The position numbers were made by a program, and so were the translations under genes. A stretch of DNA of 64,000 nucleotides from positions 2,976,001-3,040,000 of the forward strand of contig JAYWIR010000023.1 of NCBI GenBank assembly GCA_036172245.1. Reading direction: 5' to 3'. Of this stretch, positions 15,001-58,990 are shown piece by piece. Under the pieces are notes generated by a model. It had not been told where the DNA came from. It saw nothing but the letters and a program-made list of their open reading frames with translations, and did no database searches. Numbering within the stretch: position 1 is the first letter of the stretch; each line of letters begins with the position of its first letter. The stretch is from Raillietiella orientalis. Taxonomy: Eukaryota.

Positions 15001-17943
15001 TATTGTGTTTTGCCCTTATAATTACATTATCGATCCATCCATTAGAAGAAGTGTAAGAATTCTTTGATTTTTTGGACTTTGAACAGGGAGAGTTTAGTCG
15101 CTCTCCTTAACCCAGATCTTAGAAGATTGAAAGCGAGAGCAAATGTTATTGAGAGCAATCGAGTTGATTTTTTCTCATTCTACTTCAATGACTTGCCACG
15201 GTGTCGTGGAAATTGCAATAAAAATAAAAATAAAAAATGGACTTGTTAAATAACAGTAGCCTGATGAAAGATCGCCAAAGCTTTCACGGCATTTTGAATT
15301 ACAGAATGTATAGAAAGTGGATAAAAACATGAGATGCGAAATGAACGACGAAGTGGACTTTCAAGTTTTTTACTCATGGGTTTTCCATTTTTAGTTGCAA
15401 TTGAACTTGCAAGGCCATGTTTTGATAATGGATGAAGCACACAATATAGAAGATTGTTCACGTGAAGCTGTCAGTAGCAGTTTCACGCAGGATTTTTTCC
15501 GTTATGCTATTCGTAATCTCGAAGAGATAGCTGGAGTTGGGTACCATGTCGATGCTCACAACTGGCTGGTAAGGAGAGCAAAGGAATTCACCAGATCCAA
15601 CATCCCAGGCCAAAATGCTGTCTTCGTTGTGCAACTGGATGGATCGTCAGGAACTGGAGCATTACCGGGAATCCGATCAACGTAGCCACATCATGACGGG
15701 AACAGAAATGGCAGCCCATTTGCAAAACTTGGGCTACGGCCTAGAGAAAACAGATGAAATGCTGGTGAGAGTAGATTTGTTTTTGTTTTTGTTTTTTCAT
15801 GTTTATATGTAGAAAAACATAGCTCTGGTGTCGAAAAGGAATCAGAAAGATGAAGAGTCAGAAGTAAAACGCGTGAGCAAACGTACTGTCAAGACACTGG
15901 AAGACTGGGCACAATTCGTGCAGTTTTTAAACATGGAAGGCAAGGTTCATCTGGAAGACTTCCGTGTTGTTATCATCCGTAGCAGAACGGAGGAAATGGG
16001 TAGCCCCGTGAGTAATTTCAAAGTGGTGCTCATGATTTACTGACTTGCAGAAAAAGGATTCGTGGCTGCGCGCAAAGCAAAAGGTCGGGTGGCTCCTGAC
16101 GTTGCACGTTTGGTGCCTGAATCCTGCGCTGGCCTTCCAGCAGCTCAATCAGCTTTTGCGATGCATCATCCTCACATCGGGCACCCTAGCCCCTGTCGAC
16201 TCATTTCAGTCCGAACTAGATGTGTCCTTTTCGATACTGCTCGAGGCCAATCATATCATTTCCTCGAACCAAGTCTGGGTTGGTGCAGTTGGCTGTGGTC
16301 CCACCGGAAAGCCTCTGCAAGGAGTGTTTCAGCAAGTGGAAACGTTCGCTTTCCAGGATGAATTAGGCGGCTCCCTCCTCCAGCTGTGCCACACCATACC
16401 GTTTGGTGTCTTGTGCTTTCTCCCATCATATCGACTATTGGAACAGTTGGTTAATAGGTCAGGCAGTGTGTAGAAATCCCGAGTCAACTCGTTTGAAACT
16501 AGATGGAAAACCACGGGGTTGTGGAACCGGCTACAGAGGATCAAGCAGGTTGTCGAGGAACCGCGTAACAGTGATACACTCAATAGTGTCATGGAGCTGT
16601 TCTACAAAGCCGTCAGGGCTAAGGGAGCTTTATTTTTGGCAGTGTTCCGAGGAAAAGTCAGCGAAGGACTGAACTTTGCCGACAATAATGCACGGGCCGT
16701 AATAGTCGTGGGTATTCCCTTTCCCAACTACCGTGACCTTCAAGTGCAGCTGAAACGTGAATATAATAACCAGCGTCAGCATAAGCTTCAGTCCGGATCT
16801 CAATGGTATGAAGTACAGGCATATAGGTGAGGTCAACTTTCATTTAAAGCAGCATTTGTGTCTTAGAGCTTTAAACCAGGCGTTGGGACGCTGCATTCGA
16901 CACAGAAAAGACTGGGGTGCCTTACTGTTGCTTGATCAACGTTTTGTTACCTCCTCGAGGCACTCTAAAGGTCTATCCAAGTGGGTGCGGAATAAACTAT
17001 GCACCTATAACAATTTCGAAAGTACCCTCAAGTCTCTGGATTCTTTTATACAACAAAATCTTCGCTCTGCCCTGCTCCCCTCGCCTTCAGATAACTGTGA
17101 ATCCCGTTTCAAAACCAGTTCTGTCCGGGATGAGATTCAGTCCCAAATAGAAAACGTAACCAGCAAAGCCAGTAAAAATGTCTTTTCATCCAAAACCGAA
17201 TCTTCTGAAGGGAGGTACTGTAAAAGATCTCGGTTGACGGTGAGATACGAAGCCGCAACTCGGGAAAAGGAAACCCGTGATTCGACTTGTAAGCCTTTTT
17301 CTTCTTTTTCGTAAACTGATTCTTATTTCATATTTGTTCAAATTTGACAGTTTGTTCGTCAGCCCAAAGAACTGATGCTTTTCCATATTCTGGAGACAAG
17401 CCTTTAGCGGCGGACGCTTTGGGAAGTCGTGTGATTGCGGACAACGACACGGTGAAGCAAGGTTCAGATCTCGGTTTAGGTCCGCTCACACCCGTCCCTC
17501 CTGTCGAAAGTCGTAAGCTCATTTGGCCTCAAAGAGGGAATCTGTCGAGCTTACTTTTGGCACGCGACGTGCCTCACGTATCTCCAGTTGGTGCTTATGA
17601 ACCCGCTTTTAGAAATCTAGGTCGATCGATTGAGGATGAGACAATGGAAGAATCAGATCTCTTGAACAGAATAGAAAAATCACATACGTTGCAGTTTTCT
17701 ACCCCCGGAAACGATGTTCCCCCTGTTTCTATGCATCCCCAAACTAAGGACTGTACGATTGACTCCAGAGTGGAAGTTTCCGCGACATGCTGCTCCAAGC
17801 TAGTTGATGTTAACTGCAGCACGCAGGATACTCAATTGTCTACAGATCTGCTTCAATCGAGTGATAATGAAACTCCGAAGGTGAAGTCACGATTAAGTTT
17901 ATCACAACGGCACAAGACGTTTGCTCAAGTCAAAAAATACTAA
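3025..17943 (+). CDS. BRIP1: Fanconi anemia group J DEAH Fe-S DNA helicase (FANCJ/BRIP1/dog-1), 16 coding exons
   Basis: Exons with continuous phase: 3025-3108 ([29 protein letters not shown] motif), 3794-3905 ([11 protein letters not shown], Walker A), 7331-7405, 9869-9958, 13042-13097, 13150-13229, 13316-13405 ([15 protein letters not shown]-type rather than RTEL1 ASRTHSQ), 14611-14749, 14837-15052 (Fe-S cysteines in RCCVHP, ELC, TCAYY, ACPYY), 15395-15568 (DEAH), 15609-15764, 15813-16007, 16051-16457 (LTSGTL), 16503-16826 (RGKVSEG), 16867-17288 (QALGRCIRH), 17351-17943. Exons 3-6 encode a low-conservation linker and are less certain. Confidence 0.93.
4990..6482 (-). mobile_element. Internally deleted Tigger/pogo-like DNA transposon (Tc1/mariner superfamily) in FANCJ intron 2
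   Basis: TIRs CAGTGGACTCCCACATAACGC (4990) and its near-perfect reverse complement ending at 6482, with flanking TA on both sides and repeated subterminal CGTATAACG motifs. The minus strand encodes a decayed CENP-B/Tigger HTH N-terminus ([19 protein letters not shown]...[18 protein letters not shown]...[12 protein letters not shown]) joined to an acidic Tigger-like C-terminus ([26 protein letters not shown]). No DDE domain is visible. Confidence 0.85.
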
Positions 17944-17951
17944 TCAGAAAC

Positions 17952-17967
17952 AATAAAAACTTTTATT
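17952..17967. terminator. Back-to-back polyadenylation signals of FANCJ (+, 17952-17957) and dynamin (-, 17962-17967)
   Basis: AATAAA on + 8 nt after the FANCJ stop; TTTATT (AATAAA on -) 9 nt after the dynamin distal stop. Confidence 0.7.
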
Positions 17968-17976
17968 TTTGATTCT

Positions 17977-25618
<7,642 letters not shown>

Positions 25619-36891: not shown

Positions 36892-39800
36892 ATGAATGAA
36901 CTGGATAATAGAGAGTTTTATACAAATATTATTCAAATGTTATCGTGTATGGATGAAAGAAGTTCAGCAGATGCAGTTGATTTCATTCTGAAGTTTTTTG
37001 TATCCTTTTTTTAACGATAATTTTCAAGAGGGACAGCAATCTGCTTTCAATGAAAAGTTTGGTGTATGAAAATAATTTGATGTTTATTAGTTGTAATTGT
37101 TAATAATTTGATGTTTATTAGCTGATAAGTAAAATTGTTTAGAATAGAGATCGGGGGGTTATTAATTTTAGTCATGTCGCTTATTTAAGTTAGGCATAGA
37201 GCTATGTCACATAATTGAAAGCACGGGGTTCATTCAAAGATTCGATTTATTTATCTGTGAGCATACGAAACACCATCGTTATATTTATTTATATTATCGT
37301 TCTTATATTTATTTCCTGCTGTTGGTGGCTTCTGCTTTTTCCTTAACTTGTTGTAGAAAGTGCTGGATGGTGACATTCATCCTAACAATATGAATGTTCA
37401 CATTTCATTTTTGGAGTTATTGCACAGTAACTTATTTCCAGTTGTAACGTTTTCCCTACAGATACTCCTCACCAAAACGATTCTCCCAGCAAACAAATGT
37501 TACATTGCACAAGGTCTTCAGTGCTTAAATCAAAATATGGAAAGCATAGAAGATCATAAGGAGCAGTTGATGGTAAATATTCTACATAACTCTTTTTATT
37601 GATTGTTCATAAGATGCTGAATCAACTAATAAATCAGACGGAAACAGGATTCAGGTGTTTGAACCAGCATGCTACTGATTTTGAGTGGTTCAATATTGCA
37701 TCTCTTCTACAACATGGATTTGATATTCTTGAAACAATCTTTGCTGGATGGGGAAATAAGTACTTAGGAAATGTGAAGAAAGTGATTTTTTTTGTTATTA
37801 GAACATTCAACAAGACAAATGGATGCGAGGGAGCACTTATTCAAGGAACATCTGCATTGCTTGATGACTTCTTACAGATTTTGCATAGTCCAAATTTCAA
37901 TTTGGTTTTGCAGGAGGACATGCTTGCTCTCTTAGATTGTAAGTGCTTTTGTGAGTGTGCATGCATGTGATTTTTGAAATTTTCCGTAATGATTATTCTA
38001 TTTCTTTGGGATGAAAGATTGTAACTATTGTTAAAAATGAAACATCTAATCAACTGAATAGATGTTAGTTATGCCAAGAAATCAGTTGGAGTGATTATTT
38101 TTGTATTTAAATAAGTGGGGAAAAAAAAAATTAGTTTGGTAGAATGTGCAATAACACTACGTTTAGTATGTGAAAGAATGAGTAGATTGGGAACTCTGCT
38201 TATGAGCAAGGATGTACAGATGTGTACTGTGCTATGGAAATCCTACTATCAACTTTTGCAGCCACGTATTGATTGTTTAAGATCTTGTGTGGATATAACC
38301 CCTGCTGTTCTCTCTCTCTCTGAGAACATCAGTGTCTGTTTGATGCAGCTACAAAAGCAATTAGTAAGCATATAATAGCAAATCTTCTGAATTCTCAATT
38401 GGACCATTTCAGGAAAGAGAACAGGCAACATATCAAGCAAATGAAATGCAACTGATCCATTTGCAATTGCAAATATTAGTGTTTCTGTGTAGCAGTTTTC
38501 CTTGTTTATCTGATTGGCATGGATCTCTCATTCAGTTAACATGCATTTTGCTCAGGTTTTTGATGAAAATAGTGGTTTTTTGAGTGACTTTGTTGCAGGC
38601 TGCCAATAACTTGCAAGGAACATTGTCATATCAAGAAAATCGAACATTTGGTAATTATGGTGGATCCTCTAGTTGCCTCCTTAGCCAATGATGCCAACTT
38701 CATTATTGTACGTTATTACTTATAAAAAACAGTTCGCAATTTCTCCTACAGGCTGTGAAGACAGTTAGTTATTCATTGTCTTGTGGGGATTCTTGTGCAT
38801 TAGGGATTACAGCTTCATCTCTTTGCCAACTACTTGCTCTGATTTTGGATCAAGTTAAAATATGGGATGTTACCATGTGGCATCAATTTATTGGATGTGA
38901 AGATAATCTGTTGCACAGTTTGCTTAATCTAGTGGATCTTTGTGAGTAAAACAAGGAACAGGCAGATTACAGGAATAGGTCATGTGGAACTCAGTTACCC
39001 CTTAAGACCACCAGCTGCATGGATGATGGGCAGCACACTTTCCAAACTCAGTTTGTACCAGCATCTAGTGACTCACATCTGTGGCATGCTAGCTGGAGTT
39101 CCTAGTGAATGTTTTGCAGCAATAGAAAAAACTCTGCTCAAGGGAATCTTAAGTGGCTATTATTGGCAAACTCTTATGACAGCTGATGTGTGGTGTTTTC
39201 TTCTTCGGATCAGCAGTCAGGAACTGAGCTTCTCTCACTGCAGCTTACTAGCCAGCATATTGTTGAATAGTAGGTGTCCATCTATGAATACATCATTCTG
39301 CTTACTGCACTGGTTGCTGTGTCGCTTGGTGGCATTTTTGTCACCTAGTCAGCAGGCACACTTTGCCCATCAGTTTCATCAGCTTAGTCTTTGGAGTGTA
39401 ATCTCTCTGAAACCGCTAGTTCCTTCTGTCAAAAAAGTGGTTAGTCAGCAATTAACTGAACAAGTGCGTGTTATCCTCATGAAGCTAAATGAATCTTTGC
39501 AAAGTAATAACTTGGTGCGTTATCCTGCATTGTATCTTCTCTAAGTACAGTTTAGCTACTACTGTTACATCTGTTACACCTCAATGGGGAAGAGCTGATG
39601 GGAGAATTGTATGCAGTCTTGCCCACAAAGCTGTTTGAGTGGACATCAGCTGTTCTGCCAGCCACTGGAGTTTTAGCTCCTTTAGGAATAGGCATATTAA
39701 GTGCTTTAAGAAGTGTAGTCAACGCCATTTCTGCTACTCAGATGCAACAAGTAAGTAAAATATTTTCGGCAAAAACAAATTTTTCTAGCTGTTACACTTG

Positions 39801-56010: not shown

Positions 56011-56599
56011 GCAAAGTCTTAGTGGAGGGATGAGTAGTTCCGGAGGAAAGAGTGTATTTGCAGTACATTCCCTCCCTCTTGCTAACTGTGTCACGATGAC
56101 GTATCGGTGAGGTAATGCAGTTCGTCATGACGGTAGCAGCGGAATTTGAGTTCGAGGTTCAGGGGGGCGTGACTTCTACCTACTGCAAAGTACTCCGACT
56201 GTTTCCTGCGTCGGGCAGTACCGCGAGTCAGCACGCTTTGTGTCCGTTAGGGAAATTCAAGATTTGGGGACCATTGATTTTTCCATGCTGTGCCTCTTGA
56301 TCTCCAGCCTGTCCGAGCAACGACCAACGGAGACCGCGCCGGTCGCGCGCGTGTTTTTACCCGGTCACGCCGGGGCATTTATTTAGAAAATAAACTCACA
56401 AGACGGGAACCCGGTTCCCAAAAAAGAAGAAAAAGTAATTCAACGGGAATGACCACCGGTACGCAGGCCGTATTTTAGGGCGATCTGGAGGGTGGGAGGG
56501 GACAGTAAATTAATAAAGATTGGAAGGTAGGGAAAGGACAGGAGTCTTTGGTATGGAACGATCCTTCGTTTCTGAAACGGACTCTCTATGGTAGCTATC

Positions 56600-57783
56600 T
56601 CCCTGGAGACTTCTTGCTCCAAGTGAGGCCATCTCGCAGCCTCTGTCCTCATCAAGGCGGCTGCCATGTGGACGGCCTCCCTTCGCTGCGCCCGAGACTC
56701 CAGCACATGGCGGACTGCGACGATGGCGTGGCTGCAACAGGGCGTTGCTATCACCGCCTGCCGTGAGTCCAACTTGCATGAAGAAACGTGGCAGCATTTC
56801 TGCAAAGAAGTCCTCAGGATGGTGGAGCGTCGAAGAGAGTCTTCGCCAGATGTCCCCGAGGGCACCGCGGTCAATTAAGGGGTGCGGGAACGATTCCATT
56901 GCCCTGCACCTTGAGCAGCTTGGGGAGCATGTCCCCCGGAAACCAGGTGCCTGTGCTGGTTGCACCGGAAACCCCGTACAAAAACAGCAGAACATCTTGT
57001 TTCAATCTCAGTGGGAACACCGAAGTGTTCGTGCACTAAGGAGGGACCACGAATTCTTCGGGGGATATGCCAAGAAGGTCACTGTGGAGGGACTATTCTC
57101 CTCTGGGGGACTATTCTCCAGAGGAGGCGTGGTCCAGCTGCCTCCAGAAGGCAGAGTCGGAGATCGGTCCATTCCAGGGTGGCAAGTTTCTCTTGCCGGG
57201 ATGGGCCGCAGTGTGGAACGCGTTTTTGATTTTCTTCTTCCGCCTTCTAAGTTTTGTTTGCCCCCCATAGCATTAAAAGGCGGATGAAGGACCTCCTGAG
57301 AATCGCCCTTCAGGGCACAGGGAGGCCCGAGTCCACCTGAAGGACTTGTGCGCTCCGCGTCGGGACGGAGACCTCGGCCTTCTGACGCTGGAGTGCCTGG
57401 AGTAGCAGCTCCAGTGGAGGATGCTTGCCCTAGTAGCGAGGGTTGGGAGCACGAACTGGTGTGAGCCCGCACAATGCCTGGTCAAGCGAGCCATAGGCTA
57501 AGCAGGACTGTCTTCGTTCCTGGCACGGCTGCGCAGGCGCAACGTGTCCCGGAAGGGATGGAAGGGATGTGCATGACGATGAGAGCTGATGGGAAACCGC
57601 CTCGTGGCTAATTTTATCCGTCAGCCCAGTTCGTGAAACAAGAGAGTTACAGTGGGAAGTTTTTTTCTCCGTCGCGTCTTCATCCGAAGAATACAGCGTA
57701 GAGCTTCGGGATATTTGCGAAGCAGCCCTAGAGCCGACTGATCTGTATGTTGCTATGCAACGGAATGAAATCATGACATAAAA
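56600..57783 (+). mobile_element. Utopia-like RLE non-LTR retrotransposon remnant, copy D (plus strand)
   Basis: Ordered fragments: WQHFCKEV, SPGNQVPVLVAPETPYK (cf. PxNWRPIxLxxTxYK), GWAAVWNAF (cf. AWLDLxNAF), LCAPRRDGDLGL (thumb), KRVTVGSF, LRDICEA. Ends in ATAAAA directly joined to U2 sequence TCTGTTC. Confidence 0.65.
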
Positions 57784-57871
57784 TCTGTTCCTACCAGTTT
57801 TCTGTCTGATGCGACACCCATCTCGCGGCCAGCACATTCAACTACTAGTTTGGAAGTGGACGCGAGGCTTG
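57784..57871 (+). pseudogene. U2 snRNA fragment (5'- and 3'-truncated) starting at the Utopia target junction
   Basis: TCTGTTCCTACCAGTTTTCTGTCTGATGCGACACCCATCTCGCGGCCAGCACATTCAACTACTAGTTTGGAAGTGGACG; roughly three-quarters identical by eye to the minus-strand U2 copy. Confidence 0.75.
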
Positions 57872-57976
57872 GAGAGACTGTCTTTGTGCTAAAGGTGGGC
57901 CAAATCCTCTCCCGAGGGAATGCGGAACGTGGATCTCACTTTGCATTTGCCTTTCAGTTCTCCCGTAATGGGGAGT

Positions 57977-58126
57977 AGCGGGCCGATCCCGGGGATGCTG
58001 CAATACCGGGTCAACCCGTGACAGGAGAAGAGCAAGTTTCAAGCATCCCGTCCACTTCCAAAAAGTAGTTTAATATACTGGCTACCAGATAGGTGGCGTA
58101 TCACATATCAAGCTGATAAGAACAAA
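57977..58126 (-). pseudogene. U2 snRNA 3' portion (from ~nt 39 to the mature 3' end), mutated
   Basis: The minus strand reads TTTGTTCTTATCAGCTTGATATGTGATACG...TATATTAAACTACTTTTTGGAAG...CTTGCTC...TGTCACGGGTTGACCCGGTATTGCAGCATCCCCGGGATCGGCCC, matching U2 stem IIa, the Sm region and stem-loops III and IV. The 5' end and branch-recognition GTAGTA are absent. Confidence 0.92.
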
Positions 58127-58990
58127 TTTTATTGAATTAATCTTGTGGTACATAGCATTTATAAGCGCTAGTGGCTCGTCCTCATCTTCCTGTTCTTCCG
58201 ACGATCCTCTCATTTTAGAGTCTGCTTATTCCGGACTAGAGGTGCCATGCATTAACAAGTACTCAATGGGATCGCTTGAATCATCCAGTGGATGTCCCAG
58301 CTTATGCGCTCAATAAATGTCCCTGCTACTTATGCAGGAGGAAACTACCAGTTTCCTCATTTTGCTGGCATAGTTCCTGGGAACACCTGAAGTTCGCAGC
58401 CCACTGTCGTTTTGGGGATCCCACTATCCTAGTAGGTCAACCAGGAATGCATGTAGTGTGACCCTTCTGCTTGTCTGGTTTATCATTTGGAGAAGGTTCC
58501 GGTACTTATCTTCCTTCTCTTTGCACGTCTTGGTGAAGGCCTCTTCTCCGATTTCAAGTGGACAGGTGATGTCCACTATCACCTATCTTCCTTACTTTTC
58601 AAGGACCAGATCAGGCCTTAACGTAGAGTACACTCCAGGGACTCGATTCTGCACATCTAAAGACGTGGTAGCGAGACCGCATCTTTGGATCTACTGGGGC
58701 TTGCCTCACCTAATGATCTCCCGATTTCACGCTCAAGAGTTTTTCTTTTTAGACTGGATGGAGCGGCTGGCTAATTTACCGGAGCAGACAATCATTGCCT
58801 CCAGAACGAGTTGTCCGAACGAAAGAGGGAACGCTGCTTGAGTCTCAGTTGATTTCCTGTTCGAGTCCGTGGTCCAGTGAACGTGGGAGTGGCAATTCGG
58901 CAGAGGAGTTGGAAGTGTTCGAGTGACTGTCAAATTCGAAACCTTCGGAACAGGGTCGTCACTGTCAGCACGAGCCGTCTCGTCATTCTG
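58127..58990 (-). mobile_element. Utopia (U2-targeting, RLE) non-LTR retrotransposon, internally deleted, copy A
   Basis: Clear RLE domain VPGVYSTLRPDLVLEK*GR*VIVDITCPLEIGEEAF...KEDKY...AFLVDLLG*WDPQND...YASKMRKLVVSSCISSRDIY. The 3' UTR ends TCAATAAAA joined to U2. The pre-RT motif ASRSIQSKKKN...REI lies directly upstream of the RLE, so the RT is deleted. 5' boundary approximate. Confidence 0.88.

Follow-up and report, generated by a model that had tools for sequence, protein, structure and literature searches.

Organization of the locus

The window, meaning the whole stretch of 64 000 nt analysed here, contains two U2 snRNA pieces in inverted orientation (Table 1), and this pair is real, far beyond chance. 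A sequence-only reading had placed the junctions at 57784 on the plus strand and 58126 on the minus strand, with both pieces starting at the same U2 position and about 105 nt between their ends. Both junctions are confirmed at those bases, each piece starts at U2 nt 39, the two face each other, and the measured distance is about 102 nt. The same reading let the plus-strand copy stop at about the mature U2 3′ end; this copy in fact ends at nt ~126. Nor does the minus-strand copy stop at the mature end, as it continues into the flank of the U2 gene.

Table 1. Features in and around the inverted U2 pair (positions within the window)
Feature	Position	Strand	Basis or remark
RLE non-LTR element (Utopia type), 5′-truncated, dead	58127..58690	minus	tblastn; family relatives
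PD..D endonuclease remnant with stops	~58255–58689	minus	tblastn, 3e-32
3′ UTR of the RLE element, ~130 nt, with an A-rich run at its end	within 58127..58690	minus	
Main arm: U2 snRNA from nt 39 to the mature 3′ end	57974..58126	minus	Rfam U2; alignment
Spacer: 3′ flank of U2 gene	57872..57973	minus	alignment to U2 genes and cassette loci
Anti-U2 arm (inverted U2 of older date, nt 39–~126)	57784..57871	plus	alignment; clade membership
Remnant of pre-arm sequence	57734..57783	plus	common to related loci
Presumed L1/Tx1-like piece, C-terminal RT region, outside the U2 unit	57100..57550	plus	high-copy repeat
Related, presumed L1/Tx1-like element, 3′ end, outside the U2 unit	56350..57060	minus	head to head with 57100..57550

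In an Rfam search, proposed as a check by the sequence-only reading, the minus-strand copy matches U2 at 85.6 bits and is the sole Rfam U2 match in the window. The plus-strand arm, searched alone (57784–57871), gives no match at E≤10, yet is U2-like by alignment: it matches the best U2 3′ piece at 80 % over 91 nt (E 3.6e-17) and the minus-strand copy at 78 % over 94 nt. The Sm site is broken in this plus-strand arm. The main arm matches the best U2 copy at 93 % over its first 92 nt. The first ~45–60 nt of the spacer match the flank of U2 genes that retain their upstream region, and the remainder is common to other loci with the same arrangement (cassette loci). Taken together, the minus-strand copy and its flank match the U2 gene on contig C389 at 87.5 % over 200 nt, U2 included.

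As the sequence-only reading had also reported, neither copy has a U2 5′ half; candidates near either window junction score no better than shuffles, and a U2 upstream flank was not found within the window. Around the U2 pair the analysis identified no gene. Elsewhere in the window, at 16036–21410 and 38933–39541, there are host exons for a helicase C-terminal domain, dynamin-family domains and DUF4487.

The minus-strand element

The minus-strand element is about 560 nt long, 5′-truncated and rich in stops, and its support ends near 58690, short of the 58990 to which it had originally been extended. The zinc knuckle has been truncated away and no RT domain is left, but the PD..D part of the PD-(D/E)xK endonuclease (RLE) is retained. 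Its relatives match at 60–80 %; the family includes L038, L043, L087, L088, L089 and L090, with L088 matching at 72 % over 613 nt. In a longer relative, L061, the RLE domain matches R2 structures (E 3e-14) and RVT_1 is found twice (E 1.6e-33 and 8.7e-15). Named homologs of a related RLE come from ticks, spiders and the dragonfly Ladona, none of them labelled Utopia; on this basis the genome is probably that of an arthropod.

Utopia elements are U2 snRNA gene-targeting RLE non-LTR retrotransposons of the NeSL clade (PMC4640811), and the 3′ junction site at 58126 and 57784 is the site in S1 Fig of that paper. Keno, of the Tx1 clade, uses the same U2 site and 3′ junction but has an APE endonuclease (PMC4640811), whereas the endonuclease here is an RLE; Keno was rejected for the minus-strand element on this ground. 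Given the combination of RLE and nt-39 junction, from which the label is taken, the element appears to work like Utopia. The Utopia-type junction recognized by the sequence-only reading is supported.

RLE relatives are common in the genome, with 151 matches among 150 scored candidates. Among the matches listed, 4/40 sampled RLE 3′ ends have ≥20 nt of U2 directly behind them, a figure that mixes several families, two of them adjoining 28S sequence, and is not the specificity of any one family; many families therefore insert elsewhere. Within the family relatives, 3′ ends without U2 are seen at L087, L150, L158 and L161, and L090 shows a ~75-nt duplication at a non-U2 site (read by eye). L172 and L174 are RLE 3′ ends in the vicinity of long open frames of 817 and 924 aa; the sequence that follows them is presumably antisense 28S rDNA, from its appearance.

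Sequence upstream of the plus-strand arm

Two elements had been proposed at the locus. The minus-strand RLE, with its in-frame stops, stands; for a plus-strand RLE, tblastn gave no coding match in the 7 kb upstream of 57784. On the plus side the U2 unit includes only about 50 nt before this position. In comparisons of L038, L045 and L047 the shared pre-arm sequence is as long as 216 nt, and it is confined to cassette loci (3/3 genome matches). Against a profile built from five RLE C-termini, these 216 nt give background scores, with no RLE coding. The window arm likewise scores at background, and of eight arms only one, marginally, rises above it. An RLE C-terminus ~0.9 kb upstream of the inverted arm is found at L047 only. 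A short UTR motif occurs at 27/51 main arms and at 6/8 inverted arms (the latter not independent), compared with 10 % at random; as suggestive evidence only, it points to an old Utopia 3′ end before the arm. The remnant at 57734–57783 is probably such a 3′ end.

Further upstream, 56350–57550 is a high-copy repeat (3421 candidates, best 40 scored) that stops near 57550 and joins a 3′ end on the minus strand to a piece of the RT C-terminal region on the plus strand. The plus-strand piece has one unnamed RT homolog, at 59 %, and obtains no label from Pfam or PDB; the presumed L1/Tx1-type label is taken here from motifs in that one homolog. Ending ~230 nt before 57784, the plus-strand repeat is unrelated to the U2 unit and was rejected as a member of it, and Keno by way of this repeat was rejected for the same shortfall. 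The head-to-head L1/Tx1-like composite recurs as a unit of ~2.4 kb with its tails outward (window 56350–57550; L081–L086), and is possibly a twin-primed non-autonomous derivative that amplified.

U2 genes in the genome

In the 210 Mb assembly the U2 model gave 46 matches among 47 scored candidates. All of the 30 U2 matches retrieved start at the nt-39 junction, and the sequence in front of it varies (read by eye). No intact U2 gene was found in the assembly: a 17-mer spanning the junction matched seven times, never within a full gene. Nor was an empty source flank found in it; the source locus is therefore not seen. On C389 the order is upstream flank, U2 nt 1–36, a 1.4-kb truncated RLE element and U2 from nt 39 onward. 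In-place hits of this kind (C389, the end of C30, and C482) retain nt 1–33/36 together with ~800 nt of upstream flank. The same upstream flank occurs at the C30 end and on C482, and in C30 it occurs in both orientations. A remnant of a U2 cluster lies near a contig end (L131, L061 (C30:2712101–2730099), L091 (C389) and L133 (C482)); each U2 gene seen in it is interrupted, and the cluster has probably collapsed in the assembly.

Retrocopies of the U2 5′ part number at least 190 genome-wide, against 3 in the control, and U2 RNA is therefore often reverse transcribed in this genome. These pieces (e.g. L101–L130) are tailless retrocopies that start at +1 and end at nt ~30–36, and many of them show short target duplications that overlap with the final bases of U2. 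Two further loci, L177 and L179, start at U2 +1/+2, lack the upstream flank and have partial U2 3′ pieces. An internal U2 fragment that is uninterrupted has a U1 snRNA match of 100 bits (L031:1–126, minus strand) about 1.4 kb away.

Recurrence and origin of the anti-U2 arm

An anti-U2 arm lies 230–270 nt downstream at 13/51 main-arm junctions, in a sample enriched by 20 regions picked for likeness to the window; each arm scores above 100 shuffles, two of them marginally. The flank type of the window is present in 11 of the 13 arm-bearing loci, with L047 and L050 added by alignment. In all, the cassette occurs at 13 loci distributed over 12 contigs, downstream of several Utopia subfamilies. Homology among the cassette loci ends at the ends of the unit; segmental duplication was rejected, as flanks are not common to the loci.

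In a tree of 51 rows and 90 columns, with shorter pieces left out, the six full arms form one clade (100/100 support). They share 17 changes in 88 nt and bear 65 private changes, and the main arms remain near U2 (median 88 %, window 93 %). The single clade and the shared changes, set against main arms so near U2, show that the arm arose once and was then copied; it had decayed next to a U2 gene still under constraint before the unit began to spread. The window copy is among the less diverged of the dead products. The two U2 pieces belong to a single passenger cassette. In place of two retrotransposons meeting at this locus, as formerly read, the arm goes back to one older event and was passed on to many dispersed copies.

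Inverted arms at L053 and L054 have other breakpoints or lack the shared changes, and are apparently of separate origin. In L042 (4700–5250) a private change is common to the two arms, both of which follow one upstream family, and the outer arm resembles its own main arm, which likely reflects gene conversion between inverted arms. Concerted evolution of the arms in general was rejected, since such a pattern is seen in L042 only. Twin priming yields tails-out, non-overlapping pieces; it was rejected by reasoning as the origin of the pair, the expected geometry being different.

Probable read-through transduction and its alternatives

The probable vehicle of the cassette is read-through Utopia RNA reinserted off target, that is, 3′ transduction. 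On this model a short Utopia-U2(39–126) piece would have landed backwards ~100 nt behind the 3′ end of an ancestral U2 gene, once, and then decayed; it may have arrived by off-target reverse transcription of Utopia-U2 read-through RNA. Several Utopia subfamilies would later have hit copies of that U2 gene at nt 36/39, and their transcripts would continue past the junction into the remaining U2 sequence, the flank and the anti-U2 arm. Such a long transcript would escape 3′-box processing. Reverse transcription would prime at varying points in the read-through tail, and the 5′-truncated element with the U2 3′ part and flank would be pasted at ordinary genomic sites, as seen at sister loci and presumed for the window, because the Utopia families here have loose target specificity.

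Transduction was among the options offered by the sequence-only reading, and it is supported by a sister copy, L088, in which element and U2 piece lie inside one target duplication. The 25-nt direct repeats sit at the 5′ truncation and at the end of the U2 piece, with their first bases overlapping U2 sequence, and score 19, where 600 swapped controls reach 16 at most; this is the most telling case. At L099 a position-matched 15-nt repeat (p 0.048) makes a target duplication around element and cargo likely, and at both loci priming seems to have been internal, by microhomology. In contrast to genes hit in place, a U2 5′ half is present at only 2/51 main-arm junctions (C389 and L126) within the 4.8–7 kb scanned. 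RLE sequence reaches to within 500 nt of the junction at 30/51, mostly under 1 kb long, and the 3′ extents grade continuously between 24 and 417 nt. Also in favour of an RNA route are shared sequence that ends with the unit, family relatives inserted at non-U2 sites, L177 and L179, and the frequent reverse transcription of U2 RNA. For the sequence-only reading, a genuine flank of the U2 3′ side beyond the main arm would have refuted transduction. Such a flank was found, but read-through RNA carries it as well, and the only transcript it excludes is one that ends where mature U2 does.

Flank variants are correlated with element subfamilies (Mantel r 0.21, p 0.015, 42/51 loci), a signal that fits RNA export and time-structured insertion in place alike. 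At the window, the best candidate target duplication is a 6-nt match with a score of 9, equal to the control median, and none was found at any cassette locus. Overall, 6/54 units exceed the control 95th percentile, with about 3 expected by chance. The cassettes show no trace of A-to-G editing from a double-stranded RNA stage. An ADAR-type trace was rejected: shared arm changes are T>C 6/31, A>G 2/20, C>T 1/17 and G>A 0/20, and A>G changes in cassette main arms are 9/233 vs 52/742 elsewhere.

A less probable course, though one to be taken seriously, is spread at the DNA level, in which U2 genes with the arm dispersed from the U2 cluster, were hit in place, and lost the 5′ half and promoter by deletion. 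Differing Utopia subfamilies on the same flank, U2 units in both orientations in the cluster at the C30 end, and cassette loci without target duplication would all suit it, as would the 5′ 38 nt that are missing upstream of an oomycete Utopia in the part of PMC4640811 consulted. However, the in-place insertions in this genome retain the U2 5′ half and upstream flank, which none of the cassette main arms does; no uninterrupted dispersed U2 gene was found; and L088 shows an RNA route for the same family. Local origin, whether two Utopia copies independently entered a pair of inverted U2 genes or an inverted duplication took place locally, is barely credible, even with both junctions at nt 39, with L042 showing that arms can be rewritten locally, and with L053 and L054 carrying arms with other breakpoints or without the shared changes. 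The window arm bears changes common to five other loci, there is no RLE upstream of it, and it resembles its own main arm (0.74) scarcely more than others (mean 0.72, max 0.76). The single arm clade across contigs has by now largely refuted this alternative. The inverted gene pair or old inverted duplication envisaged by the sequence-only reading may explain the first origin of the arm in the source U2 gene, but not its presence at this locus.

The fold-back of read-through RNA into a U2/anti-U2 duplex, which had been anticipated, is a real potential in silico, with a predicted minus-strand fold of -163 kcal/mol (z -10.7) and plus-strand fold of -141.9 (z -6.7). It is most improbable that the cassette was kept or amplified because such a hairpin feeds small-RNA silencing of Utopia. 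Tail-to-tail arms did arise at least twice, perhaps three times; yet any recent inverted repeat gives a strong fold, the six arms have gathered 65 private changes and go on diverging, many copies are truncated, and arms are not homogenized within loci except at L042. Equally far-fetched is a model in which U2 genes repeatedly gained an anti-U2 arm whose ~90-bp hairpin would trap Utopia read-through and yield small RNAs, the cassettes being exported, possibly active copies.

With read-through transduction as the preferred reading, the cassette is a dead, recurrent U2/anti-U2 fossil with no sign of function, probably exported by Utopia read-through. The evidence points to an ability of a site-specific RLE retrotransposon, once its specificity is relaxed, to carry away the 3′ part of the gene it targets together with the flank. 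Finding a Utopia-U2 junction would then not prove that a U2 gene was hit, and tallies of ‘disrupted U2 genes’, or target specificity derived from 3′ junctions, can be inflated. Transduced flanks would also record older versions of the U2 locus. For host biology, the cassette is a dead fossil unless small RNAs turn up.

Comparison with known systems

L1 3′ transduction moves downstream host DNA of variable length on read-through RNA, and the progeny mark the source locus. The cassettes would likewise have carried downstream host DNA of variable length on read-through RNA; they differ in that the enzyme is an RLE, the cargo is the element's own target gene, and no poly(A) follows the cargo. For R2, target sequence on the RNA, acquired by read-through, is an aid (PMC6795142, portion seen).

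In the portions of PMC4640811 consulted, Utopia shares with the elements described here the RLE, the nt-39 3′ junction, an excess of disrupted over intact U2 genes, coexisting families, tandem insertion and, in some families, weak specificity. A U2 5′ half at the 5′ junction is seen there for some arthropod families and is not required for weakly specific ones. Insertions are described in U2 genes or short U2-like sites, whereas here the U2 3′ half and flank lie at unrelated sites; the same portions describe no export of U2 3′ halves with flank and no inverted U2 arms. The portions of PMC13188248 and PMC13580325 consulted hold nothing bearing on the cassette arrangement, and no description of it was found in literature searches, with subscription papers and Repbase entries outside their scope.

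Tailless retropseudogenes, as far as covered in the parts of PMC5322556 and PMC4494074 consulted, arise by internal priming on a few complementary bases and have variable 3′ ends and target duplications. They are 5′ pieces of mature RNA, whereas the cassette is a 3′ part that reaches beyond the mature end. SINEU, in the part of PMC4494074 seen, resembles the cassette as a mobile unit with U2-derived parts, but it starts with U2 and ends in poly(A), whereas the cassette carries U2 in its tail and its upstream element varies.

A U2 piece of 20 nt at L135/L175 was rejected as a transduction, being a duplication before a second full-length element. In the long Utopia copies L175 and L178, ~20 nt of U2 from downstream of the cut site precede the 5′ ends; this resembles the 20-bp duplication described for reptile Utopia, while arthropod families are said to make none.
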